Below, one piece after another: positions 1 through 45,195 of a stretch of DNA of 46,563 nt. The notes beneath the pieces are model-generated. The model saw only the letters and a list, made by a program, of their open reading frames with translations. It ran no database searches and had not been told where the DNA came from. The DNA is from a virus (Duplodnaviria; Heunggongvirae; Uroviricota; Caudoviricetes): positions 1 to 46,563 of IMG/VR virus record IMGVR_UViG_2721755658_000005. The stretch is one strand, 5' to 3'. The stretch's first letter is position 1. Each line of letters begins with the position of its first letter. Both the position numbers and the translations under genes were made by a program.

Positions 1-443
1 TGAAACGTAAAACACTGCCTCTGCTGGCACTGGTTGCCACCACTCTGTTTCTGAGCGCCTGCGATGACAGAAGTGATGAACTGAAGGCCATCAGCAAATT
101 CAAGGACCTCACTCCGCCGCGCTTCAGCGATGTGGTCAGCCGCCAGGATGATGTCAGCGAAGAATGGTCACAGGTTGGCTTCTCATCTGGTCTCACCCTG
201 CAGGTCTTACGTACCCGTGAGTCGCCCGATGGCTGCGAGGGCGGTAGTTACTACTACCTCGCGGATATGCAGGAAAAAACCGTCCAGCCGCTGATGAATG
301 CGCTTTGTATTGCCGATAACATCAAACTGGAATACCAGGAGGTGACGGACCCGTATACCAAAGAAAGATACTTTGAGTACGCCCATGACGGCAAACTGAT
401 GGGGCGACTGCTGATACCCTCAAACCCTGAGAACCACGAATAA
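1..443 (+). CDS. yafY: YafY-like lipoprotein (start codon truncated by 1 nt at window edge)
   Basis: Frame 3 reads (M)KRKTLPLLALVATTLFLSAC..., giving a signal peptide with a lipobox (LSAC). It is in the same frame as track ORF 132-443. The full length would be 147 aa. Confidence 0.65.
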   Translation, partial: KRKTLPLLALVATTLFLSACDDRSDELKAISKFKDLTPPRFSDVVSRQDDVSEEWSQVGFSSGLTLQVLRTRESPDGCEGGSYYYLADMQEKTVQPLMNALCIADNIKLEYQEVTDPYTKERYFEYAHDGKLMGRLLIPSNPENHE

Positions 444-466
444 AAACAACGATAAAGGAGACAGAA

Positions 467-934
467 ATGACAATAGATTCACTAAGCCGGTTTGTACTGG
501 CATGTTCACTGTTTACCAGCTTTACAGCCTCTGCGGTTCCCGGATTCTGGCAGCAGGGCTATGGCCAGGGCAATACGGAATACAGCGTGACCGATACCAG
601 TGGGAAGATGTTTACCATCAACTGTACTGGAAATCCTGACCAGAATGGTTTCTACCAGCATTCAGTTTTTCTGACCCTGACGGATAACAGAATGGTCAGT
701 TCGCACGATGATGGCACCACAGTCACCGTGGTGATGGACCATAAGCAATATGCCATTCCCTCAACCCTTGGCTGGCGTAACGGCGATAACGCCTGGTATG
801 ACTTCATTATGGATATCCGTAAGACCGGGCAGTTTGACGTTTACGTCAATGACCGTAAAGCGGGGACTTTCACTGTGGACCTGAAGAACGCAGAGAAAGT
901 TCTGCCCACTCCCGGAGACTGCGGTAACGACTGA
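467..934 (+). CDS. ykfB: YkfB-like exported protein of unknown function
   Basis: 155-aa ORF with an N-terminal signal-like segment, in the CP4-6 gene order. Confidence 0.55.
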
Positions 935-1010
935 AAGCCGTTCCTCCTTACGCAAACCAACCCCGACAGCCATCAGGCTGCCGGGGTTTTCTTTTATCAG
1001 GAGCCCGAAA

Positions 1011-1250
1011 ATGTCCCAATCCGTGTTACTGCCACCGGGGCCTTTCACCCGGAGACAAGCGCAAGCGGTCACTACCACGTACAGCAATATCACCCTCGAA
1101 GACGACCAAGGCAGTCACTTCCGCCTTGTGGTTCGAGACACTGAAGGCCGGATGGTCTGGCGGGCATGGAACTTTGAACCCGATGCCGCTGAAAGTCTTA
1201 ACCGCTACATCCGCACCTCTGGCATCCGTACAGGCACCTCCACCCGCTGA
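1011..1250 (+). CDS. ykfF: DUF905 family protein (YkfF-like)
   Basis: 79 aa. The sequence [43 protein letters not shown] is typical of the YkfF/YpjJ family. Confidence 0.6.
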
Positions 1251-1345
1251 CCGCGAAGCATTTACCCGCACATTTCACCTCCCCGAACACGCTTTATTCC
1301 CCCATTTGCCAGCCATCGCCGCTGGCGTTTTTTATTAACGGAGAC

Positions 1346-1810
1346 ATGCCCATGACAACACAGACGCAGTACGGCCTCGCACCCGCTAACCAATCAGAAT
1401 TTGAACTGACCGTCACGCAGGTACCCGACGAACAGCGTATCGATTTCTGGCCGCAACACTTTGGCACTATCCCGCAGTGGACAACCCTGGAACCGCGTAT
1501 TTTTGCCTGGATGGACCGCTTCTGTTCGACCTACAGCGGTGGTATCTGGTCCTTTTACACCCTCAGCAATGGCGGGGCGTTTATGGCTCCCGAGTCTGAC
1601 AATGATGAGACATGGCGTCTGTTTAATTGCCTGAACGGCAACGATGCCCAAATGAGTGCAGAAGCCGCAGGTATTGCTGTCTGCCTGATTGCGTACAGCC
1701 ATCACGCCTGTCGCACCCAATGCGATGCCATGACTGAACACTATTACCGCCTGCGGGACTACGCCCTGCAGCATCCAGAGGCCCACGCCATTCTGCGTAT
1801 TATCGACTGA
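1346..1810 (+). CDS. yafX: antirestriction protein, ArdB/KlcA-like (YafX-like)
   Basis: 154 aa. Its position and sequence match the YafX/YfjX/YeeS-neighbour family of CP4 islands. Confidence 0.7.
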   Translation: MPMTTQTQYGLAPANQSEFELTVTQVPDEQRIDFWPQHFGTIPQWTTLEPRIFAWMDRFCSTYSGGIWSFYTLSNGGAFMAPESDNDETWRLFNCLNGNDAQMSAEAAGIAVCLIAYSHHACRTQCDAMTEHYYRLRDYALQHPEAHAILRIID

Positions 1811-1825
1811 CCGAAGGAGCAACAG

Positions 1826-2302
1826 ATGAAACAGCTTTCCTTTTTACCCGGCGAGATGACGCCACAGGACCGGTGTCTCATTCAGCGGGCGCTCAGGGCT
1901 CTGGACCGCCACCTGCATGAGCCCGGCGTAGCCTTCACCTCTACCCACGCCGTACGTGAATGGCTGCGACTGCATATGGCCGCGCTTGAGCGGGAAGAGT
2001 TCCGGGTGTTGTATCTGGACAACCAGAATCAGTTGATTGCCCATGAAACGCTCTTCATCGGCACGATTAACCGCACCGAGGTGCATCCCCGGGAGGTGGT
2101 CAAACGTGCTCTGCACTTCAACGCGGCGGCGGTGATACTCGCGTACAACCATCCTTCTGGCGAGACAACACCCAGCCAGGCAGACAAAGCCCTCACGCAG
2201 CGACTGGTACAGGTGCTTCAGTTGGTGGATATCCGCGTCCCTGACCATCTGATTGTCGGCGGCAGGCAAATCTATTCGTTCGCAGAACACGGTTTGCTGT
2301 GA
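1826..2302 (+). CDS. ykfG: RadC-like JAB-domain protein (YkfG-like)
   Basis: 158 aa. The motif HNHPSGETTPSQADKALTQRL is the RadC/JAMM signature. Confidence 0.8.
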   Translation: MKQLSFLPGEMTPQDRCLIQRALRALDRHLHEPGVAFTSTHAVREWLRLHMAALEREEFRVLYLDNQNQLIAHETLFIGTINRTEVHPREVVKRALHFNAAAVILAYNHPSGETTPSQADKALTQRLVQVLQLVDIRVPDHLIVGGRQIYSFAEHGLL

Positions 2303-2310
2303 GGTATGAT

Positions 2311-2532
2311 ATGAAAATTATCAGTAAACGCCGGGCAATGACGATATACCGCCAGCATCCTGAGTCCCGAATCTTTCGCTACTGCAGTGGAAAATATCAG
2401 TGGCACGGTAGCATCTGCCATTACACCGGCAGGGACGTTCCGGATATCGCAGGTGTCCTCGCGGTATACGCCGAACGCCGCCAGGACCGCAACGGGCCTT
2501 ATGCCTGCCTGATGAGCATCACTCTGAACTGA
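2311..2532 (+). CDS. ykfH: DUF987 protein (YkfH-like)
   Basis: The ATG at 2311 (MKIISKRRAMTIYRQHPE...) gives 73 aa. The track ORF starts 12 nt earlier at an alternative codon. Confidence 0.6.
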   Translation: MKIISKRRAMTIYRQHPESRIFRYCSGKYQWHGSICHYTGRDVPDIAGVLAVYAERRQDRNGPYACLMSITLN

Positions 2533-2552
2533 CAATACAAAGGAGAGTCGTT

Positions 2553-2870
2553 ATGACTCACATCACATGGGGCCTGCAGCGGAATATCACGCCGCGCCTG
2601 GGAGCCCGTCTGGTGCAGGAGGGGAACCGGTTGCATTATCTGGCTGACCGGGCCAGCATCACCGGCAAGTTCAGTGACACCGAATGCCGGAAGCTGGATG
2701 AAACATTCCCGCACTTTATCCGCCAGATGGAATCGATGCTGACCACCGGTGAAGTCAGCCCCCAACATGCCCACTGCGTCATCATGTACCACAACGGTTT
2801 CACCTGTGAAGCCGACACCCTTGGCAGTTGCGGTTACGTGTACATCGCCATTTATCCCACCCAGCGCTAA
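2553..2870 (+). CDS. yafW: CbeA-family type IV antitoxin (YafW-like)
   Basis: 105 aa, immediately upstream of the CbtA-family toxin. Typical YafW/YeeU/YfjZ sequence. Confidence 0.75.
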
Positions 2871-2890
2871 TAACTTTCACGAGAGCAAAC

Positions 2891-3232
2891 ATGAAAACTT
2901 TGCCTGCAACAACTCAGCGGGCGGTGAAGCCCTGCCTGTCACCCGTGGCTGTCTGGCAAATGCTACTGACACGCCTGCTGGAACAGCACTATGGTCTCAC
3001 CCTCAACGACACACCGTTCAGTGAGGAACGTGTTATACAGGAACATATCGATGCCGGGATCTCGCTGGCTGATGCCGTGAATTTTCTGGTGGAAAAATAC
3101 GAACTGGTGCGTATCGACAGGAAGGGATTTAACTGGCAGGAACAATCGCCTTATCTTCAGGCTGTCGATATTCTGCGAGCGCGGCAGGCAACTGGCTTGT
3201 TGCAGCAAAGCCGTAGCAACGTAGTACGATGA
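2891..3232 (+). CDS. ykfI: CbtA-family toxin (YkfI-like)
   Basis: The ATG at 2891 ([43 protein letters not shown]...) gives 113 aa. Confidence 0.75.
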
Positions 3233-3619
3233 ACATTGCGTACAACCTTCCCGATTTACATTTCTGAACTTCCTCCCTTGTTTACCTATTGCGTAATGCG
3301 CCTGCTGCTACCCGGCTGGCGCGTTATCTTTTTACGGACAAACCATCATGCAACCAGAAGGTGAAGTATTAACCGATCATAATGAGCTAATTTGTTCAAG
3401 CTTTATTGAACACATTGCCAACACATTGAATTTAGGAGTGGTGTAGACATGGACAACTAAACCTGCAGCCACGGAGGTATAGCGAGTGAAGCCCTATCCG
3501 ACCTTTTTGGTCAGTAGATAAGATTGATCTTCGTTGATAGAATTTACTTACATCAGCAGTTACATGAAAATAATTTTTGGTGGGAAAAAGATAAGACACT
3601 ACGTAACTATTTGATTTCT

Positions 3620-3665
3620 TGGTGCCGATAATAGGAGTCGAACCTACGACCTTCGCATTACGAAT
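3620..3665 (-). repeat. displaced 3' 46 nt of tRNA-Thr thrW = int-distal att junction of the prophage
   Basis: TGGTGCCGATAATAGGAGTCGAACCTACGACCTTCGCATTACGAAT is identical to 45120-45165. Identity ends at 3666 and 45166. Confidence 0.9.
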
Positions 3666-4080: not shown

Positions 4081-5775
4081 CTAATTGGTCTCTATAATTG
4101 AGCTTAATTCGTTAATGAGCAGGTGAGGGCTCATTTGAGTTAAGTCATACTGCCGCCCCAATTTCTCTTGCATTCCTCCTCGTATTTTCTTTAATAAATA
4201 TTTGCCTTTAATGTTATTAACTGATGTCGGAACTTGGTTTCCAAATAATGTTAGGTGTCGAGGGCATGCTTCCAGTCTCCCCTTATATAAATTATATTTA
4301 ATCACCTCTCTTTTGGATTGAAAATCAGACTGGATGACAACATGATTTTGTGCGGCTATATCAGTAATCCATGTTTGTATATCTTGCACAGAAGAGCCTG
4401 TAACATGAGATAAATGCTCTATTCTGGTAAAATAACTCTCAATATCACTACCTTCAGTAATGAATGGAATGGCGCCACCTCTTTGAATTTCTGCTTTTAC
4501 TATATCTACTTCTTCATCAGTCATAAAATCGCGGTCACGATGAATTATAACCTTGCAATTAGGGGACATTTCCTTAAGAAGGTCAGCAGATACAATTGCT
4601 CCTTGCACATTTGTGCATGTTTTGTAGCTATAGACTGCAGTTCTCTCCATATCAAAACCATTATATTGTAAAAGGGCCTTGAAATATTTTTTATCTCTAT
4701 CTTCAGTGAGAAATATATTCTCCACAACTCCTTCAGTTACTCTATCCAAGTCATTTAAAGCTCCTAAATCTAAGAACATTGATATTTTGTCCAAATCCAT
4801 GCCTTGATTCTGAACATTACCATCTTTCATCCAAATAAAATTTGCCTCTCCATACAATGAATCAATTATATGTTTGCTATGAGTGGAAAGTATAACTTGA
4901 GTTTCTGATTTGTTATTTTCTGATATTAAACTCAATGAGTCAGTGAGAATATATTGATTATCAGGGTGAAGATGAGAATCCGGTTCATCTAAGAGTAATA
5001 ATTTAGGTTTGAAATATACTATATATGCAAATATCTGTAATGTTTGAAGTAATCCAGTTCCCGCCAACTCGATAGGGTAATTTTTCCCACTTGCATTTTC
5101 TTTAAAATTAACGGTTAGATAAGTATCTTTATCCTCTTTGAAATCCACTTCGATTTCTATATCTGGAAATACAACTTGCAGCATGCTATTGAGATTTACC
5201 AAGTGGTTATCTTTGTTCAGATAGTATATGACATTCCTTAAGTATAAATTTGCATCACCACTTGCCACTCCTCTTCTAACTATTGCTGGCGATTTTAATT
5301 CTTCCTTCTGTGAGATACCAGCCAGACCAGGGACATATATACTAAAGAGATTTTTTTCATCGGTGATTACTGAACCGAAGCCGGTATAATCACCGGTTCT
5401 TTCACATGACATATTTCCATGATTTCGTCCCTTAGATATAATTATATTGTATTCTAATTGTCGACCAGCAAGATCATCATATCCAAAAAGACTCAACACA
5501 CTTTGATTGCCAGGCGACCTCGAATTCTTATAAGGTTCGCCGTTCTTTAAAACAGTGAAGTCTGGGGTGATATTATACATTAAAAGTTCAGTAGAGAATG
5601 TTTGTTGACTTTGTTGCCGAGCGGCAATAGCTGCGCATACTGAAAAATGTATAGCTTGCAGAATACTGCTCTTACCTGAACTATTTGCCCCTACTAATAC
5701 ATTTATATCACTAAGGGTGATTTCTGCTGTGTCAATTTTTTTGAATTTACTAACAGACAAAGACTTAATGAACAT
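4081..5775 (-). CDS. ABC/AAA15-type ATPase fused to a Toprim/DUF4435-like C-terminal domain (OLD-family or fused PARIS AriA-AriB-like defence nuclease)
   Basis: ATPase motifs are present: Walker A GANSSGKSS, signature-like LAGTGLLQTL, Walker B LLLLDEPDSHLHP, and H-loop ILSTHS. The C-terminal part carries IFLTEDRDKKYF, IIHRDRDF and SDIESYF, which resemble the acidic Toprim/DUF4435 motifs. The ATG at 5775 has an AAGGA Shine-Dalgarno. The track start at 5793 is a TTG. Confidence 0.6.
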   Translation of the reverse strand: MFIKSLSVSKFKKIDTAEITLSDINVLVGANSSGKSSILQAIHFSVCAAIAARQQSQQTFSTELLMYNITPDFTVLKNGEPYKNSRSPGNQSVLSLFGYDDLAGRQLEYNIIISKGRNHGNMSCERTGDYTGFGSVITDEKNLFSIYVPGLAGISQKEELKSPAIVRRGVASGDANLYLRNVIYYLNKDNHLVNLNSMLQVVFPDIEIEVDFKEDKDTYLTVNFKENASGKNYPIELAGTGLLQTLQIFAYIVYFKPKLLLLDEPDSHLHPDNQYILTDSLSLISENNKSETQVILSTHSKHIIDSLYGEANFIWMKDGNVQNQGMDLDKISMFLDLGALNDLDRVTEGVVENIFLTEDRDKKYFKALLQYNGFDMERTAVYSYKTCTNVQGAIVSADLLKEMSPNCKVIIHRDRDFMTDEEVDIVKAEIQRGGAIPFITEGSDIESYFTRIEHLSHVTGSSVQDIQTWITDIAAQNHVVIQSDFQSKREVIKYNLYKGRLEACPRHLTLFGNQVPTSVNNIKGKYLLKKIRGGMQEKLGRQYDLTQMSPHLLINELSSIIETN

Positions 5776-5822
5776 TTTCTTTTCCTTTTTCAATGAAAGG
5801 TGTAAAACTTTAACTCATCATT

Positions 5823-6107
5823 TTAGTTGTTAACATTCAAAATCATAAACTGATTCTCTATTTTACCAATGAATAGCAGTCCTATCAGAGTAAAAATAGT
5901 GTTAGATATTTTTCTTACATCTGAATCTGAGAAATATTCGGATTCTTTATAGCAATTATTCCATATGTCGAGTTCTCTAAAATCATAAGCTAAATGAGCA
6001 ATTTTTCCCCAATCTTCATTTACTATATGTTCAGCCATTGTAAAAAAATCACTCTTAGTCGGAATGTCTATTCTCATTGTTACTTGGCCTATTTTTTCAT
6101 TGCTCAC
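5823..6107 (-). CDS. hypothetical 94-aa protein with C-terminal hydrophobic segment, probably co-transcribed with the ATPase
   Basis: The gap to the ATPase gene is small (29 nt to its TTG start at 5793, 47 nt to the preferred ATG at 5775). The strand and AT-rich composition are the same. The hydrophobic stretch is ISNTIFTLIGLLFIG. Confidence 0.45.
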   Translation of the reverse strand: MSNEKIGQVTMRIDIPTKSDFFTMAEHIVNEDWGKIAHLAYDFRELDIWNNCYKESEYFSDSDVRKISNTIFTLIGLLFIGKIENQFMILNVNN

Positions 6108-6296
6108 ATATATAACTATATGATATTTATATTAAAACTCCAACATTAAGTTTCGGCTTTCTTCAAGTAAACTACATAGCACGATGTAAGCAACTTCCGC
6201 TTTTGGCACATAGCAGTCCTAGAGATACTGGCGTAAAGCCATGGAGGATCGGTGGGAGGAGGTAAAAATCCTCTCATGCAAAAAATACGCAAAATC

Positions 6297-6386
6297 GATA
6301 ACAGTTGGAAATCATTCAATACTCGCACTATCGGAAGTTCACCAGCCAACCGCAGCACGTTCTTGCATACGACATGCCTGCGGTTT
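6297..6386 (+). repeat. copy A of a ~90-nt structured repeat (ends in hairpin CCGCAGCACG...CATGCCTGCGG + TTT)
   Basis: It aligns without gaps to 8972-9061 with about ten mismatches by eye. One mismatch pair is compensatory: GTTGG/CCAAC in copy A versus GCTGG/CCAGC in copy B. Confidence 0.8.
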
Positions 6387-6407
6387 CAACTCCCGCCAGC
6401 TCCACCA
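6380..6407 (+). other. look-alike of the 3' terminus of tmRNA (ssrA): GCGGTTTCAACTCCCGCCAGCTCCACCA
   Basis: It differs at one position from the E. coli ssrA 3' end as I recall it (GCGGGTTCAACTCCCGCCAGCTCCACCA). This is probably an att-site relic of an ssrA-targeting element. Confidence 0.55.
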
Positions 6408-6531
6408 ATCATGATTGGACGGTTAAGGACAACACCAATAAAAACAGGAAGTTAGCAGTCTCAGCAGGACACCGACCAGACGGTGAGGAGACAAAAAAGG
6501 ATACGCAAAGGAGCCGCGGCTCCCGAGTGAC

Positions 6532-6567
6532 AAAAAAGCCCGCTTATGCGGGCTTTTTTGTTTTTTT
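6532..6567. terminator. bidirectional intrinsic terminator
   Basis: AAAAAA-GCCCGC-TTAT-GCGGGC-TTTTTTGTTTTTTT. It lies 10 nt downstream of the Bro-N gene stop on the minus strand. Confidence 0.75.
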
Positions 6568-6576
6568 CCCTCAAGC

Positions 6577-7338
6577 TCACTGACGTGTTCTTGCCTCAAC
6601 TACTTTCTGGTATATAGCGATAGCTTCATCAACCAAAGCTAATGGATAGCAAGAATTTATATTCAATCCGGAGGGGCACTTAATTCTTTCTGCTCCACGT
6701 TCACTACGCAATTTTTCACACCATTGCCAAAGTTCCTCAACTGAATAGGTATCCAAACCTAACTCCATCAATCGTTGAGGAACACTTCTGAACTGAGACA
6801 AATCTCTTAAACTTTCTAACGAGTTAACTTTTAGTTCAACTTGGTTTACTCTACTTTCTAACTCTTCACGTTTTTCTATTTCCATTACCAATGCTTGAAC
6901 CGTCTGCTGCAGACTGTTAGCAAAAGCACTCAGTTCTGAACGTTCTTGTTTAGGTGGCGGAGGATATACACCAAATTCACGAATAGACGGAAGGACCTGA
7001 TGAAAAAGCCAGCGTTGGAATTTTTTCCCCGCAGCAGTAGTATCCTGAGCAAGTACTCTATATAGACCTGGTTCAGTAAGAAATACCTCAGAGATAGTTT
7101 CACCATCCACGACAAGAGAAACATTCCTAAACTCATCTGGATCTAAAGTTTTTATTACCGCTTTTATTACAGTGAGCAAGCTTTGAGAAGTCTTTCCATC
7201 CAGTTTTCTGTTCTCAGCAGAAAGCGTTCTTAGCACATCTGAAAGTGAAACAAAAATCTGCCCTTTTTCATTCATGCTACGGATATAATTTTCTCCACAC
7301 TCTCCTTCGTAGCATAATTGTAACAAATTCTTTTGCAC
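6577..7338 (-). CDS. Bro-N domain protein (antirepressor-like) with coiled-coil C-terminal half
   Basis: EVFLTEPGLYRVLAQDTTAAGKKFQRWLFHQVLPSIREFG is the Bro-N signature. The start is a GTG preceded by AGGAGG. Confidence 0.75.
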   Translation of the reverse strand: MQKNLLQLCYEGECGENYIRSMNEKGQIFVSLSDVLRTLSAENRKLDGKTSQSLLTVIKAVIKTLDPDEFRNVSLVVDGETISEVFLTEPGLYRVLAQDTTAAGKKFQRWLFHQVLPSIREFGVYPPPPKQERSELSAFANSLQQTVQALVMEIEKREELESRVNQVELKVNSLESLRDLSQFRSVPQRLMELGLDTYSVEELWQWCEKLRSERGAERIKCPSGLNINSCYPLALVDEAIAIYQKVVEARTRQ

Positions 7339-7361
7339 GCCATCCCCTCCTTTTTTTATGG

Positions 7362-7389
7362 ATTATACATCCTATAAACATGTTGTCAC
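7362..7389 (-). promoter_or_regulatory. candidate sigma70 promoter for the Bro-N gene
   Basis: On the minus strand: GTGACA, 16 nt, TATAAT, upstream of the AGGAGG-GTG start. Confidence 0.4.
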
Positions 7390-7616
7390 CGAAAGGGAAA
7401 AGCATAAACCCAATTTATGTTCCACAAGATGTTCAAAAATCAAACAACCATATAGCTGAGGAGCACAAAAGAGCAAAAGTTTACCAACCCCATATATCCA
7501 TACAGCACATAAAATTGACACTACATGTGGTATTTTTTAAGTTACGCCTTGCACCATTTCATGGTTTTATGTAGATTGTCATCACACGCTGAGATTAAAA
7601 AATTCTACAATTTTTG

Positions 7617-7645
7617 TTGATCTTGAGTTTGGTTTTTAGTATAAG
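7617..7645 (+). promoter_or_regulatory. candidate sigma70 promoter for the XRE-ImmA operon
   Basis: TTGATC, 17 nt, TATAAG. A GGAGG Shine-Dalgarno and the ATG at 7672 follow. Confidence 0.5.
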
Positions 7646-7671
7646 TGAGCATGGATTGTAGGAGGCGCAAC

Positions 7672-8022
7672 ATGGTAACTAGCTTTGGTAAGACTCTCAG
7701 AAAAATGAGAATAGACCGGGGTATGGTGCTCAAAAATATGGCTGATCTGTTAGGCGTTAGTTCGGCTTACTTATCCGCCATTGAATTAGGCAAAAGAGCT
7801 ATACCGGACTCATTAGTAAATACGATTGCAACAACTTTTGAGCTTAGCGGACAAGACATCATCAATCTCAAGAAACAGGCAGAGATTTCTCAACCGTCCA
7901 TTAAGGTTGATATGTCGGATGCAAATGAGCAGAACAAAGAACTAATGCTTGTTTTTGCTCGTAAATTTAAGGACCTGAGTCCAGAGCAACTCGATAAGCT
8001 TAATAAAATGTTAAAGGACTGA
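7672..8022 (+). CDS. XRE-family helix-turn-helix regulator
   Basis: FGKTLRKMRIDRGMVLKNMADLLGVSSAYLSAIELGKRAIP is a canonical HTH_3 sequence. The ATG at 7672 has a GGAGG Shine-Dalgarno. The track start at 7645 lies inside the -10 element. Confidence 0.8.
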   Translation: MVTSFGKTLRKMRIDRGMVLKNMADLLGVSSAYLSAIELGKRAIPDSLVNTIATTFELSGQDIINLKKQAEISQPSIKVDMSDANEQNKELMLVFARKFKDLSPEQLDKLNKMLKD

Positions 8023-8025
8023 ATA

Positions 8026-8559
8026 ATGATTGCGAAACGAGAACTTGGCCATCGCGTTTCACCTCTCAGCACCAGCATGATTAAATCATACGCTCATCGT
8101 CTGAGAGACGTTCTTCAGATATCAAATCACACATATCTGAGACTGGATGTATTACTAGAAGGTCTTATGGCCTCAGAAAGCATTGAGCTAGAAATTGTTG
8201 AAGATCATGAACTGCCCAAACGCTATGCAGTGACTTATCCAGATAAGAACAAAATTGTTTTACAGCGATCTGTTTACGATGCAGTGTGCAATGGTGAGAA
8301 CCATGCGAGATTCACTGTTGCGCATGAACTTGGTCATTTAGTCATGCATCGCAATCAAAGTATCTATGCACGTAATAAGACTAGTGGAGGGCATAAAATC
8401 TATGAAGACAGCGAATGGCAAGCAGATGTTTTTGCAAGCCACTTCTTAATTGACTCAAGACTAGTTTTGCCCACAATGACTGTTGAAGATATAAGCAAAA
8501 CATTTGGTGTCAGTCAACAAGCGGCTGAAACCTGGATGAGAAAAAATGCAAAAAGATAA
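8026..8559 (+). CDS. ImmA/IrrE-family (COG2856) zinc metallopeptidase
   Basis: The HEXXH motif is in FTVAHELGHLVMH. The gene starts 3 nt after the XRE gene stop. Confidence 0.85.
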   Translation: MIAKRELGHRVSPLSTSMIKSYAHRLRDVLQISNHTYLRLDVLLEGLMASESIELEIVEDHELPKRYAVTYPDKNKIVLQRSVYDAVCNGENHARFTVAHELGHLVMHRNQSIYARNKTSGGHKIYEDSEWQADVFASHFLIDSRLVLPTMTVEDISKTFGVSQQAAETWMRKNAKR

Positions 8560-8566
8560 CGAAAAA

Positions 8567-8589
8567 GCCAGCGAACCGCTGTCGCTGGC
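8567..8589 (+). terminator. hairpin after the ImmA gene (weak terminator)
   Basis: GCCAGCGA-ACCGCTG-TCGCTGGC is a perfect 8-bp stem, but the trailing T-run is poor. Confidence 0.4.
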
Positions 8590-8684
8590 TTCTCCTATCG
8601 TAAGCAAATACGAAAAACTTGGCGGTTGTGAGTATACGCTTACCTTAGGTTTTGTCAACAGCGAAACTTTACAGGTAACACGAT

Positions 8685-8828
8685 ATGACCATTGAAAAAG
8701 CTGTATCTGAGGAATACATCACAATTTACCGTCCTTTTATTACGGTCAAAGGTAAACGGATCTTTGCTCGTCAAAAAGGCTTGGCAGCCTTTCCTATCAA
8801 AATTCCTGCCTCTAAGTATCGAGGATAA
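8685..8828 (+). CDS. 47-aa basic small protein (below the ORF-track cutoff)
   Basis: The ATG at 8685 to the TAA at 8826-8828 encodes MTIEKAVSEEYITIYRPFITVKGKRIFARQKGLAAFPIKIPASKYRG. It has its own downstream terminator. Confidence 0.35.
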   Translation: MTIEKAVSEEYITIYRPFITVKGKRIFARQKGLAAFPIKIPASKYRG

Positions 8829-8842
8829 TCTTTGCTAATCTT

Positions 8843-8868
8843 AGGCCCTTTTCTAGGGCCTTTTATTA
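8843..8868 (+). terminator. intrinsic terminator
   Basis: AGGCCC-TTTTCTA-GGGCCT followed by TTTATT. Confidence 0.55.
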
Positions 8869-8971
8869 CACTTCTGTTACGCGCACCACAGATAGAGTTT
8901 CAGCTAAAACTTTTGTTCATACCTAGGAGTCTGCTGACGAGTGGTTTGTTCACTAATAAACACGTAAAAAC

Positions 8972-9061
8972 GGTAACGGCTGGACATCATTCAATATTCG
9001 CACTATTGGAAGTTCACCAGCCAGCCACAGCACGTTCTTGCATACAACGTGCCTGCGGTTT
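8972..9061 (+). repeat. copy B of the ~90-nt structured repeat (hairpin followed by TTTTT)
   Basis: See copy A. This copy ends CCTGCGGTTTTT. Confidence 0.8.
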
Positions 9062-9153: not shown

Positions 9154-10023
<870 letters not shown>

Positions 10024-37849: not shown

Positions 37850-38337
37850 TAAGCCCCCACGTAATTCCCTGACAGATACCACTCTTCACCCGATGCAGCG
37901 CGCTTGCTGCTTTTCCGTAAGCACCGCTCACGACGCGCCAGAAAATTGTTTCGTTCTGGCTGGGAGTGGCTTTCACGGAATGCCGCCATCCACACCGTTG
38001 CAGCTCGACGGAATAAGCCCCTGGACTCCAGTTCTTCAGCCTGGCGGGTCAGGCACAAAATCACCCGGGGGTCGTTAGTGCCGACATAGAAATTGCGCAC
38101 AGGTCTGGTTTCACAAACTGGTTCCGGCTCCTGCGATATCTCAGCCTGGCGCGGGAAATGTCTGCGTGTATCCTCTTCACAACGGTGAGCCACACGCCCA
38201 CTCTGACGTAACTTGCTTGCTGACTGCAGAACGCGCTGCCGTGAGTAACCTGCAAAAGCATCCGCAATGTCTCCGGAAGTACACCCCGGATGGGCTTCAA
38301 TGAATTTCTGAACGTCATTTAACAGACTCATGATCAC
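37849..38337 (-). CDS. 162-aa protein with C-terminal PerC/Pch-like motif
   Basis: AEELESRGLFRRAATVWMAAF...ARRERCL resembles the PerC-family core (LE..G..RRAA..W ... RR..CL). Confidence 0.55.
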   Translation of the reverse strand: MIMSLLNDVQKFIEAHPGCTSGDIADAFAGYSRQRVLQSASKLRQSGRVAHRCEEDTRRHFPRQAEISQEPEPVCETRPVRNFYVGTNDPRVILCLTRQAEELESRGLFRRAATVWMAAFRESHSQPERNNFLARRERCLRKSSKRAASGEEWYLSGNYVGA

Positions 38338-39275
38338 CCTCTGAATCCTGCCGGGATCTGGCTGTAGTCCACGTTGTCGTAACTGGCTTTGAAGTACGGG
38401 TCCTCGCGTTTTTCGGTGTACGTGCTGACGGACGGCGATAAGCGCAGGGAAAGCTCATCCCATTTTTCCCGCAGCTTCGACGGGCTGAGCACGTTACGGC
38501 ACCAGAACGGATCGCGGCTGACGCGGCTGTACATCTCGCAGATTTGTTTGTGAGTACGCCCATCCTGTACACACATCAGGCGAATTTCGTTTGCCCAGGC
38601 TGTCCAGTTCGGTTCTTTGGGACGAACCACCTCGCCGTCACATTCGGCGGCTTGCTCGTACAGGGCGATGATTTTTTTCCAGAGCCACTGTGCGCAGGTC
38701 AAATCATCCTGCGTTCCCCACTGGCGCTTTTTAGGGCTGAATACAACCGCATCAGGATGGCGAGTTAAAAAATCCTGTTCATCCGTCTGCGTGTCCGGTT
38801 GCGAAGCGTCCGGACGAGAAGGTTTTTTATCTGACGGATCATGTTTTGATTTTACTGACGGATCCCCGCCAGATTCTGACGGGTGAAAACCCGCTTTTTT
38901 GCCAGATTTCGACGCATCAAATTTTGACGGGTCAGATTTTGATGCGTCAGATTTTGACGGGTCAGAATCTGACAGTTGAGAAAATGCCGCTGCCTGAAGC
39001 TTCGCAACGTTAAGCTGATAAACATTCGACGCATTGCGGTTACCCTGGCGACGCGCCTTACGCGTTAACCAGCCTTCTGCTTCCAGCCGTGCGATAGCCG
39101 TCCTGACGGTACTCATCCCCGCGCCAATCTGACGGGCAATAGTTTCAATTGATGGCCAGCACACACCTTCGTCATTACTGAAATCAGCCAGGCGGGCCAT
39201 AATTGCCACGCTGGATAATTTCATGCCTGATGCAGCGCAACCATCCCATACATAGCCGGTTAATTTAGTGCTCAT
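38334..39275 (-). CDS. replication initiator (lambda O-like, N-terminal wHTH)
   Basis: The wHTH is in SSVAIMARLADFSNDEGVCWPSIETIARQIGAGMSTVRTAIARLEAEGWL. The gene contains internal iterons. Confidence 0.8.
   Translation of the reverse strand: MSTKLTGYVWDGCAASGMKLSSVAIMARLADFSNDEGVCWPSIETIARQIGAGMSTVRTAIARLEAEGWLTRKARRQGNRNASNVYQLNVAKLQAAAFSQLSDSDPSKSDASKSDPSKFDASKSGKKAGFHPSESGGDPSVKSKHDPSDKKPSRPDASQPDTQTDEQDFLTRHPDAVVFSPKKRQWGTQDDLTCAQWLWKKIIALYEQAAECDGEVVRPKEPNWTAWANEIRLMCVQDGRTHKQICEMYSRVSRDPFWCRNVLSPSKLREKWDELSLRLSPSVSTYTEKREDPYFKASYDNVDYSQIPAGFRG
38828..38975. repeat. origin-type iterons inside the O-like gene
   Basis: About eight copies of (A)GATTTTGACGG(G/A)TC-like units, for example 38921, 38935, 38949 and 38964. 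They encode the peptide repeat DPSKSDASKSDPSKFDASKS. Confidence 0.7.
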
Positions 39276-40506: not shown

Positions 40507-41133
40507 ATGGAAACGGTTGGTCAGCGTATAAAAGCTCTGAGAAGAGTTACCGGAACGTCCCAGAAAGAATTGGGTAAATTTTGTGGAGTAAGCGACGTTG
40601 CTGTGGGGTACTGGGAGAAAGACATCAATACCCCTGGTGGGGAGGCACTTTCGAAATTAGCGAAGTTCTTCAATACGTCAATAGATTACATTCTTTATGG
40701 TGCTGAGTTTGAAGGCAAACTCGTCACAAACATGCGCAGAGTTCCTGTAATATCGTGGGTTCAGGCTGGGCAGTTTACTGAGTGCAGGGCAGCAGAAGTG
40801 TTTAGTGAAGTGGACAAGTGGGTAGATACATCATTAAAGATTGGTGATAACTCATTTGCATTAGAGGTTAAAGGTGACTCCATGACTAACCCTAATGGCC
40901 TCCCAACAATACCAGAAGGCGCAACAGTGATTGTAGATCCAGATGCAGAACCTCGTCATGGAAAAATAGTCATCGCTCGACTTGATGGAACAAACGAAGC
41001 TACAGTAAAAAAATTAGTCATCGATGGCCCTCAAAAGTTTTTAGTGCCATTAAATCCTCGGTATCCCAACATCCCTATCAATGGTAATTGCCTTATCATT
41101 GGTGTAGTCAAAGGAGTTCAATACGAACTCTAA
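40507..41133 (+). CDS. CI-type repressor (XRE HTH + S24 LexA-like peptidase domain)
   Basis: The N-terminal HTH is IKALRRVTGTSQKELGKFCGVSDVAVGYWE. The C-terminal part carries GDSM and VKKL (Ser/Lys dyad). Confidence 0.9.
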   Translation: METVGQRIKALRRVTGTSQKELGKFCGVSDVAVGYWEKDINTPGGEALSKLAKFFNTSIDYILYGAEFEGKLVTNMRRVPVISWVQAGQFTECRAAEVFSEVDKWVDTSLKIGDNSFALEVKGDSMTNPNGLPTIPEGATVIVDPDAEPRHGKIVIARLDGTNEATVKKLVIDGPQKFLVPLNPRYPNIPINGNCLIIGVVKGVQYEL

Positions 41134-43715: not shown

Positions 43716-44065
43716 TGGAGCCATACAGCCTCACACTCGATGAGGCCTGTCATTTTCTCAAGATATCCAGACCGACTGCCATTAACTGGATACGCACAGG
43801 GCGTCTTCAGGCAACACGCAAAGATCCCACTAAGAATAAATCTCCTTACCTCACAACACGACAAGCCTGCATTGCGGCTCTTCAGTCTCCGCTGCATACT
43901 GTCCAGGTGAGCGCGGGTGATGGCATAACAGAGGAAAGAAAATGTCACTCTTCCGCAGAGGTGAAATATGGTACGCCAGTTTCACATTGCCGAACGGTAA
44001 AAGATTTAAACAGTCTCTTGGAACAAAGGACAAAAGGCAGGCGACAGAACTCCATGACAAGCTAA
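43715..44065 (+). CDS. xis: excisionase (MerR-type HTH_17)
   Basis: From the ATG at 43715: [33 protein letters not shown]. The 3' end overlaps int. Confidence 0.65.
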
Positions 44066-45105
44066 AGGCTGAAGCATGGCGGGTCAGCAAACTTGGTGAA
44101 ATACCTGATATAACGTTCGAGGAAGCGTGTGTCAGGTGGCTTGAAGAGAAAGCACATAAAAAATCACTGGACGATGACAAAAGCCGGATCGGATTCTGGC
44201 TTCAACATTTCGCAGGAATGCAACTAAGAGACATTACTGAATCAAAAATTTATTCAGCAATGCAGAAAATGACGAACCGGCGTCATGAGGAAAACTGGAA
44301 ACTCAGGGCAGAAGCATGCAGAAAAAAAGGGAAACCTGTTCCAGAATACACGCCAAAACCAGCGTCCGTTGCAACGAAGGCTACGCATCTTTCATTTATA
44401 AAGGCCCTACTAAGAGCCGCAGAGCGTGAATGGAAAATGCTGGATAAGGCACCAATTATTAAAGTGCCTCAACCAAAGAATAAACGGATCCGCTGGCTGG
44501 AGCCCCATGAAGCACAAAGGCTGATTGATGAATGTCCGGAGCCATTAAAGTCTGTTGTTGAATTTGCACTGGCAACAGGCTTAAGACGCTCGAACATCAT
44601 CAACCTTGAATGGCAACAAATAGATATGCAGCGCCGGGTGGCATGGATAAACCCGGAAGAGAGTAAATCAAACCGCGCAATTGGCGTTGCGCTGAATGAT
44701 ACTGCATGTCGCGTATTGAAAAAACAAATCGGGAATCATCACCGTTGGGTATTTGTGTACAAGGAAAGCTGTACCAAACCAGACGGAACGAAAGCGCCAA
44801 CAGTAAGGAAGATGCGGTATGACGCAAACACAGCCTGGAAAGCGGCGCTGAGACGGGCTGGTATTGATGATTTCAGATTTCACGACTTGAGACACACCTG
44901 GGCAAGTTGGCTGGTTCAAGCCGGAGTCCCGTTGTCAGTGTTACAGGAAATGGGAGGCTGGGAGTCTATCGAAATGGTTCGTCGATATGCTCACCTTGCA
45001 CCTAATCACCTTACCGAACACGCACGGCAAATAGACTCGATCCTGAACCCATCGGTCCCAAATTTGTCCCAGTCAAAAAATAAGGAAGGTACTAATGATG
45101 TGTAA
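43942..45105 (+). CDS. int: tyrosine integrase, P22/SfV type (thrW-specific)
   Basis: [34 protein letters not shown] opens the protein. The catalytic region follows: ...LRRSNI...[38 protein letters not shown]. The gene lies adjacent to the tRNA 3' end. Confidence 0.9.
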
Positions 45106-45119
45106 CTTATTGATTTACA

Positions 45120-45165
45120 TGGTGCCGATAATAGGAGTCGAACCTACGACCTTCGCATTACGAAT
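45120..45165 (-). repeat. int-proximal att junction (phage-supplied 3' 46 nt of thrW)
   Basis: Identical to 3620-3665. Confidence 0.9.
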
Positions 45166-45195
45166 GCGCTGCTCTACCAACTGAGCTATATCGGC
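45120..45195 (-). tRNA. thrW: tRNA-Thr (anticodon CGU)
   Basis: The reverse complement reads GCCGATATAGCTCAGTTGGTAGAGCAGCGCATTCGTAATGCGAAGGTCGTAGGTTCGACTCCTATTATCGGCACCA. It is 76 nt and cloverleaf-compatible, with anticodon loop TTCGTAA. Confidence 0.95.

Follow-up and report, generated by a model that had tools for sequence, protein, structure and literature searches.

Pairs of an XRE-type helix-turn-helix (HTH) repressor and an M78 metallopeptidase belong to the most frequent two-gene modules carried by phages and mobile elements, and the output that they regulate is mostly unknown. In ImmR/ImmA of ICEBs1 and phage phi105, the repressor gene is followed in the same operon by a gene for an HEXXH peptidase of about 170 amino acids (aa) that has no extra sensor domain, whereas CapP, the peptidase of the CapH/CapP pairs found with cyclic oligonucleotide-based antiphage signalling systems (CBASS) and other defence operons, has about 290 aa and carries a linker and GAF domains forming a groove that binds single-stranded DNA. 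Xre-COG2856 pairs, as well as Xre-Bro pairs, were proposed by Makarova et al. in 2009 to control 'a still unknown third component' (PMC2701414). A pair of this kind is described here from a 46,563-nucleotide (nt) stretch of viral DNA (Caudoviricetes; IMG/VR record IMGVR_UViG_2721755658_000005), referred to below as the window, which contains a prophage. The interval under study, positions 6,577 to 8,868, is interpreted with moderate confidence as two independent accessory units, namely, a stand-alone Bro-N gene and a self-contained, widespread cassette comprising an XRE repressor, an ImmA-like peptidase, a leader with an opposing antisense promoter, and a 47-aa mini-protein. The cassette would represent an ImmR/ImmA-gated locus resembling type I toxin-antitoxin (TA) systems, and for this Xre-COG2856 subfamily the comparative data name the mini-protein as a candidate third component.

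The protein-coding part of the cassette and its signals are located in the window as follows.

7571..7608, strand not assigned: inverted repeat GTAGAnT..N..AnTCTAC, a conserved block just upstream of the XRE -35 hexamer and a candidate XRE operator
7617..7645, plus strand: promoter of the XRE operon, TTGATC-17-TATAAG, conserved in locus L014 and in phage LLS
7672..8022, plus strand: XRE/CapH-like repressor of 116 aa, with an HTH and a C-terminal helical region, its ATG at 7672 preceded by AGGAGG at 7660-7665
8026..8559, plus strand: ImmA/IrrE-type M78 metallopeptidase of 177 aa with H100-E101-x-x-H104 and E130, starting 3 nt past the XRE stop
8685..8828, plus strand: basic mini-protein of 47 aa, the conserved third gene of the cassette, from an uncharacterised family
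8843..8861, plus strand: terminator-like hairpin after the mini-protein gene

An earlier note on this DNA had placed a divergent Bro-N gene, an XRE-ImmA pair with 3-nt spacing, the HEXXH motif and a 47-codon open reading frame (ORF) at 8685-8828, and all of the ORFs lie where it put them; the terminator that it assigned to the mini-ORF corresponds to the hairpin at 8843-8861. Its description of this ORF as unannotated is true of phage LLS but not of RefSeq E. coli genomes, where the product is listed as a 'hypothetical protein'. The most likely start of the XRE gene is ATG 7672, which has the AGGAGG and is the choice of RefSeq, while the ORF list has GTG 7645. The repressor matches the Pfam families HTH_19 and HTH_3, the PADLOC capH profile over its whole length (6e-11) and, in the PDB, DdrOC and CapH (7T5U). 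The whole-length capH match hints at a cleavable C-terminal domain. ImmA is recognised by Pfam Peptidase_M78 (2.8e-11) and by PADLOC capP (5e-15), the latter match being confined to profile positions 31-146 of 242. Its closest solved structure is CapP 7T5T, of which the aligned part is the peptidase core (chain residues 84-144 of 291), and H100, E101 and H104 of the HEXXH motif as well as the zinc-ligand glutamate E130 fall in the aligned stretch. The XRE and ImmA genes are adjacent in all 26 related loci. The assignment of the two genes to a bona fide ImmR/ImmA- or CapH/CapP-like pair is supported by these sequence and structure matches. In one related locus (L058), a P1-type C4 antisense RNA (Rfam RF01695, 80.9 bits) is found at 2489-2575 on the minus strand, about 300 nt upstream of the XRE gene, and adds a further RNA-based immunity element near the trio.

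By comparison, the pair belongs to the XRE/M78 switch class and is closest in size to ImmA, and cleavage of the repressor is predicted. Like ImmR/ImmA, it comprises a repressor gene and then an HEXXH peptidase gene in one operon without an extra sensor domain, it resides on a mobile element, and its derepression is expected to occur through repressor cleavage. Unlike ImmR/ImmA, it is not the master immunity system of its element, because the prophage has a CI protein of its own:

40507-41133: prophage CI, an HTH+S24 protein, far from the XRE-ImmA module

The module had been described previously as lying outside the immunity region of the prophage, and the position of this gene agrees. ImmR/ImmA also differs in what is controlled, since the pair is followed here by the gene of a conserved mini-protein, together with its RNA leader and an antisense promoter, and no xis or transfer operon is visibly controlled. 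The best profile and structure matches are to CapH/CapP and to DdrO/IrrE of Deinococcus, and with CapH/CapP the locus shares a defence-associated setting and a divergently transcribed gene. However, co-conservation does not include the divergent Bro-N gene but a partner located downstream on the same strand, and ImmA, with 177 aa against about 290, has no counterpart of the CapP linker and GAF domains and aligns to CapP through the peptidase core alone. The pair is thus not CapH/CapP in the strict sense.

The mini-protein has an isoelectric point of 10.3 and a grand average of hydropathy (GRAVY) of -0.13, and AlphaFold2 predicts an all-beta mini-domain of four short strands (predicted local distance difference test score 81). 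A profile built from these mini-proteins retrieved 126 clusters from a word-indexed database, all of them unnamed and without a Pfam assignment, and an exhaustive search enlarged the family to about 629 clusters at 50% identity. Comparison names an output candidate for one large subfamily of XRE-M78 pairs, in the form of a protein family that annotation pipelines call hypothetical or miss. The family occurs in two flavours, the 'YITIYRPFITVKGKRI' type of the window (YITIYRPF) and a commoner FRW subtype with the 'GFRWIFCRYRKV' motif (GFRW-type). A fold search of BFVD with the mini-protein returned just uncharacterised small phage proteins.

A scan of IMG/VR viral contigs with the mini-protein alone yielded 80 loci. 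When these were combined with the loci collected before, XRE and ImmA genes were found directly upstream and on the same strand in 95 of the 108 mini-protein genes, with 66 distinct ImmA sequences among them, and the gap between the ImmA stop and the start of the mini-protein gene was typically 115-170 nt. A homologue of the mini-ORF is present downstream even where the ImmA identity falls to 29-49%, including loci of Vibrio, Accumulibacter and other distant lineages. The genes flanking the trio are variable and comprise integrases, PD-T4-3, S24 proteins and DUF2971 proteins, with no cargo conserved among them. In Proteus prophages the trio is located beside the integrase gene and the divergent gene encodes a DUF2971 protein, not Bro-N, and the trio also occurs in a chromosomal defence island on a 2.5-Mb contig. 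It is very likely, on this comparative evidence, that the linkage of the trio is real and that the functional unit consists of XRE, ImmA and the mini-protein. The earlier note had proposed examining the conservation of a four-gene block; co-conservation is found for the trio but does not extend to Bro-N. Literature searches that combined ImmA/XRE with small proteins or with antisense RNA gave no description of the trio.

The spacer between ImmA and the mini-protein gene carries a further layer that the earlier note did not contain, a conserved RNA leader and an antisense promoter. Their elements in the window are listed below.

8560..8684, plus strand: structured 5' leader of the mini-protein mRNA, with a hairpin at 8561-8595, a middle stem, and an ACCUU segment pairing with the AGGU Shine-Dalgarno (SD) sequence; folding z=-3.05
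8631..8658, minus strand: antisense promoter, TTGACA-16-TATACT, matching the sigma-70 consensus at 11/12 positions, with both hexamers conserved in 8 relatives
8553..8624, minus strand: predicted antisense small RNA (sRNA) of about 70 nt with predicted ends, consisting of the 5' tail ACCGCCAAG, a small hairpin, the terminator hairpin 8595-8561 and a U-run

In the window subtype, this 126-nt spacer is conserved at the nucleotide level above the flanking proteins, and its top-conserved positions are the hairpin at the ImmA stop, the motif TTGGCG, and the complements of TTGACA and TATACT. In a locus whose ImmA is 46% identical (L020), the alignment shows that both hexamers and the spacer hairpin are kept and that the substitutions in the hairpin preserve pairing. 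Folding predictions for the window and its relatives indicate that the leader sequesters the ribosome-binding site, in the window by pairing of the AGGU of the SD with ACCUU.

In the FRW loci the structure can be followed by covariation. Hairpin 2 shows compensatory changes in all 7 pairs, and covariation links its loop (CCAAGAGG) to the segment that adjoins the SD sequence on the 5' side, as in the combinations CCGGGAGGA/TCCTCCCGG, CTGGGAG/CTCCCAG and CCAAAAG/CTTTTGG. In alignment A8, 89% of the cells of this subtype are paired as against 76% in shuffles, and none of 500 shuffles reaches 89%. Compensatory double changes are seen in 13 of the 14 pairs, while controls slid along the sequence are 37-53% paired. 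Cognate duplexes of the two segments have a mean energy of -10.1 kcal/mol, compared to -6.6 for non-cognate ones, and 0/5000 permutations are as low, a statistic that is inflated by related sequences. The pre-SD segment, UCUCU, can pair with the GGAGG of the SD through U.G pairs, which is possible on the plus strand only. The leader structure is likely to be real. In several FRW loci (e.g. L031 at 4985-5005, L072 and L061) an out-of-frame ATG occurs 4 nt before the mini-protein start (ATGAATG), nearer the strong AAGGAGGTG, and could act as a decoy start or as a signal for coupling.

The antisense promoter was examined across 60 distinct spacers using the pattern TTG-N19-21-TAnnnT, which is present on the minus strand in 58 of them and on the plus strand in 6, with 7.1 in shuffles. 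Of the 58 minus-strand patterns, 50 are located 23-40 nt from the ATG of the mini-protein gene. The minus-strand terminator hairpin of the window (8595 to 8561) comprises 14 bp and a U-run, and a terminator-like hairpin with a T-run is found on the minus strand of 54 of 65 spacers compared to 28 on the plus strand. The predicted antisense RNA, taken as about 77 nt, folds like a typical sRNA (z=-3.8). It is likely that the antisense promoter is real; the promoter and the terminator are indicated by conservation, and the RNA itself is predicted. Neither the leader nor the antisense RNA matches an Rfam family at gathering or E-value thresholds. The predicted start of the antisense transcript falls between the two covarying segments; the helix that they make must consequently be internal to the mRNA, and one of its two partners would be masked by the antisense RNA. 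No plus-strand promoter is enriched in the last 200 nt of ImmA (7/73 versus 11.5 expected), which makes read-through from the XRE promoter the probable source of the mini-protein transcript. RefSeq annotates a different ORF across this region:

8546-8695, plus strand: 49-codon ORF (WP_001519526, a 49-aa hypothetical protein) overlying the leader and the antisense promoter

This ORF is frameshifted in phage LLS and in two further relatives (L015 and L016), and was rejected as a probable mis-annotation.

The type I loci tisB/istR-1 and symE/symR provide the nearest precedent for such an arrangement. They are gated by the SOS response, and the mRNA of a small protein is produced from a promoter that is derepressed under stress, while translation is kept low by the fold of the leader and by an antisense sRNA that is made constitutively and pairs upstream of the ribosome-binding site. 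SymE illustrates that the toxins of these loci need not be membrane peptides. The cassette resembles them in its predicted control layer of antisense RNA and leader, but its gate would be a protease-cleavable XRE protein encoded in the same operon rather than LexA, and the mini-protein represents a new, basic, beta-rich family that is predicted to be soluble.

A mechanism combining the two layers can be proposed. Dimers of XRE would repress the operon promoter at 7617-7645, as family knowledge suggests, and upon a stress or infection signal ImmA would cleave XRE, as in ImmR/ImmA, DdrO/IrrE and CapH/CapP. Transcription would then pass the weak plus-strand hairpin at 8561-8595 and enter the leader, no separate promoter for the mini-protein gene being detectable. 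The leader would sequester the SD sequence, and in the FRW subtype the loop of hairpin 2 would pair with the anti-SD segment and free it; the pairing is indicated by covariation, and the SD-freeing direction is inferred. This pairing would be blocked by a constitutively made antisense RNA of about 70-100 nt with complementarity to that stretch of the leader, and convergent transcription may add to the antisense effect. The mini-protein would thus be made only upon strong derepression of the operon, when the read-through mRNA exceeds the antisense RNA and the ribosome-binding site is opened. In the last and weakest step the mini-protein is the output of the cassette, most likely as a growth-arresting or anti-phage effector, which is speculative. 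The covarying leader RNA and the positioned antisense promoter reveal an unexpected second control layer, offer a testable model of how an accessory switch of a prophage may set its firing threshold, and provide candidates for a small effector and an sRNA family that would both be new.

Several observations weigh against this interpretation. The mini-protein fits type I TA systems in size (47 aa), but it is basic and, with its GRAVY of -0.13, not hydrophobic like the classic type I toxins, and no homology or fold match for it was found in Pfam, PHROGs, NCBIfam, PADLOC or the PDB. About 12% of the mini-protein genes lack XRE-ImmA. The GAF-like domain with which CapP and IrrE sense single-stranded DNA is absent from ImmA. 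Most of the covariation is seen in the FRW subtype, because conservation in the window subtype is too high to reveal much, and a base-by-base alignment of the window leader with those of the FRW loci is not possible. Covariation of a hairpin does not by itself separate the strands, since duplex energies are similar for the minus strand, and the inflation of the permutation statistics by related sequences has to be taken into account. A bolder proposal is advanced only tentatively: the cassette may be a previously unrecognised, widespread, prophage-borne abortive-infection or defence module, in which a cleavable repressor (a type II-like gate) and an antisense RNA (a type I-like buffer) control a soluble 5-kDa toxin of novel fold, and which would supply the 'unknown third component' postulated in 2009.

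The XRE and ImmA genes could also form a TA or addiction pair by themselves, in which the peptidase is the toxin and XRE the antitoxin, or a split Rosmer antitoxin; the mini-protein and RNA elements would then be incidental passengers or a mere terminator region. Xre-COG2856 pairs were indeed predicted to be TA systems (PMC2701414), and the Xre-peptidase component of PD-lambda-2 is toxic on its own (PMC9519451). Like RosmerTA (RmrT/RmrA) and PD-lambda-2, the cassette combines an XRE HTH and a zinc peptidase with an unrelated small partner and is found in defence hotspots of prophages, and the PADLOC RmrA profiles match both XRE (N-terminal part) and ImmA (middle part). These matches are separate, however, and fall on two genes, whereas the HTH and the peptidase of RosmerTA and PD-lambda-2 are fused; those systems have larger, unrelated toxin genes, and descriptions of them include no RNA layer. 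No PADLOC family, RmrT included, matches the mini-protein or Bro-N at E<=0.01. The pair is consequently not Rosmer, and the RosmerTA-type membership considered in the earlier note had to be abandoned. A two-gene addiction pair leaves the linkage of the mini-protein family across 66 distinct ImmA sequences unaccounted for, as well as a spacer conserved above the proteins, with covariation and a positioned antisense promoter. Moreover, the unit of antisense promoter, leader and mini-protein gene moves as a module onto other operons. In Pantoea and related loci (L035, L097, L098 and L109), a pair of Gp49 (PF05973) and HTH_37 genes, similar to HigB/HigA, occupies the place of XRE-ImmA, and the unit persists after this pair, or in loci without a recognisable XRE or ImmA. 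The leader and mini-protein gene thus appear portable between autoregulated HTH operons. Linkage to ImmA, conservation of the spacer and portability are not expected of incidental passengers, and the two-gene explanation is considered very unlikely.

The second unit of the interval, besides the XRE/ImmA/mini-protein cassette, is the Bro-N gene with its own signals.

6529..6562, strand not assigned: terminator hairpin of the bidirectional type, 15 nt past the Bro-N stop, with a 15-bp stem including 7 GC pairs and flanking A- and T-runs
6577..7338, minus strand: Bro-N/coiled-coil protein of 253 aa, an independent neighbour gene
7362..7389, minus strand: Bro-N promoter, GTGACA-16-TATAAT, near consensus, its -10 hexamer invariant in three diverged relatives

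The N-terminal Bro-N domain is recognised by Pfam (PF02498, E=1.5e-7, 32.4 bits against a cutoff of 25.6), and the protein matches the PHROG 'anti-repressor Ant' (5e-17). No KilAC/ANT domain was found in its C-terminus with Pfam, which beyond Bro-N gave just weak coiled-coil-type matches. The location of a Bro-N gene beside an XRE gene and the PHROG match recall Xre-Bro TA pairs and phage Ant/Bro antirepressors. In the described Bro-Xre module, however, xre precedes bro by 23 bp within one operon, while here the genes are divergent, separated by a gap of about 330 nt, served by separate promoters and not co-conserved, and the Bro-N protein lacks KilAC/ANT.

The possibility that the XRE-ImmA pair is a CapH/CapP-style switch whose cargo is Bro-N, released as an antirepressor or toxin on DNA damage or infection, was weighed against the genomic context. 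The divergent layout is like that of CapH/CapP-regulated operons (10.1101/2022.04.27.489752), Xre-Bro pairs were predicted as TA-like modules (PMC2701414) and one of them is reported to be toxic in Weissella (PMC11638225). In E. coli the four genes always occur together (33 of 5426 complete genomes), but they do so in one stretch that is 99% identical or more between genomes and represents a single recent unit, so that this co-occurrence is not independent evidence for linkage. A second, independent juxtaposition of Bro-N with an FRW-type trio was found in locus L129; the genes there are in tandem, not divergent, which fits sharing of a hotspot better than regulation. Seen from ImmA-centred loci, Bro-N is confined to the closest relatives and most XRE-ImmA cassettes lack it, and seen from 27 Bro-N-centred loci (at least 66% identity), 16 lack the XRE-ImmA-mini-protein trio. 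Bro-N as a co-conserved cargo was rejected from both sides. In a three-way alignment footprint, the only conserved blocks are the two promoters, one belonging to each gene. They are about 230 bp apart, about 200 nt of the DNA that separates them is unconserved, and an operator shared by Bro-N and XRE is not seen in the footprint. The near-consensus promoter of Bro-N likewise argues against control by the switch. A requirement of prophage induction for an antirepressor is unlikely because the CI protein has an S24 autocleavage domain. Bro-N as the effector released by the switch, as the earlier note had it, is highly doubtful on these grounds; the gene is a hotspot bystander with its own promoter and terminator, outside the cassette. 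The locus serves as a warning that a divergent neighbour in a prophage hotspot is not to be taken for functional cargo.

The prophage (41.5 kb) is integrated in thrW and bounded by attachment (att) repeats at 3620-3665 and 45120-45165. The interval is located at the end opposite the integrase and CI genes, between an invertible tail-fibre region and attR.

43942-45105: prophage integrase
45120-45195: tRNA-Thr (thrW), its 3' half repeated at 3620-3665

Another possibility is that the cassette is an accessory of lysogeny or mobility. Cleavage of XRE would then switch on the mini-protein as a small regulator that binds DNA, for example an excisionase-like directionality factor or an antirepressor, in the way that ImmR/ImmA gates xis in ICEBs1. 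Apart from this precedent, the small size and basic character of the mini-protein are compatible with such a role, its gene converges on the integrase gene in many prophages, and the LLS cassette adjoins attP and int on the circular genome. However, LLS has a separately annotated putative excisionase, and both the window prophage (HTH+S24) and LLS (an annotated putative repressor) have their own CI. The cassette is also found away from integrases, in defence islands and beside PD-T4-3, the predicted fold of the mini-protein is all-beta and not a winged helix, and an antisense-RNA layer is more typical of toxic products. A role in lysogeny or mobility is accordingly regarded as rather unlikely, and the gated, type I-like cassette remains the preferred reading.

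The block of Bro-N, XRE, ImmA and mini-protein genes has a GC content of 40% as against 52% for the prophage, and it is bracketed by a direct repeat.

6280..6386: left copy of a 107-nt direct repeat, abutting a 27-nt ssrA 3' end at 6381-6407
8955..9061: right copy of this 107-nt repeat; the two copies are 87% identical

The block carries this ssrA 3' end although the prophage sits in thrW, and in phage LLS the homologous genes adjoin the ssrA attP (PMC12315714). The repeats themselves were considered as ssrA att sites and rejected, because the ssrA part comprises only the 27 nt at 6381-6407; the 107-nt repeat is a lambdoid-phage end sequence that is located near dinI-like genes in other phages. 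Strain 0H26 (L004) has a single copy of the repeat and lacks the Bro-N/XRE/ImmA block. Together, the repeats, the single copy without the block in 0H26 and the block at the ssrA attP of LLS suggest that the block moved between phages by recombination.

The block is a mobile accessory unit ('moron') in a hotspot that is AT-rich, att-proximal, variable and rich in defence genes, as follows from its low GC content, the bracketing repeats, the ssrA end, the variation in SC476 and 0H26, and the neighbouring defence genes.

4081-6107, minus strand: AAA_15/OLD-like ATPase of 570 aa (top PADLOC matches NsnB and AriA) and a 94-aa ORF, GC content 34%, between attR and the block
9250-10023, plus strand: GIY-YIG (LEM-3-like) gene directly downstream of the block, a PD-T4-3 single-gene anti-phage system (PADLOC 2.7e-140)

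In E. coli SC476 (L003) the ATPase slot is occupied by retron Ec48, and this slot is a candidate site of defence-gene exchange. An FRW-type trio in another locus (L096) likewise adjoins a near-identical PD-T4-3 gene. Insertion sequence (IS) elements interrupt the block in E. coli LZSFT34, EC02, ET490 and ET670, inserted within Bro-N, at the 5' end of XRE or where the mini-ORF begins, which could reflect selection against the genes or plain IS activity.

To the left of attR, positions 1-3600 of the window represent the end of a CP4-6-like island with ykfI/yafW-type genes, so that two elements are integrated in tandem at thrW. Finally, the ORF at 38334-39275 (HTH_36) contains, at 38903-38977, four overlapping 30-nt units with 15-nt spacing (CAGATTTTGACGxGT-like), which look like origin iterons within a replication-initiator gene.

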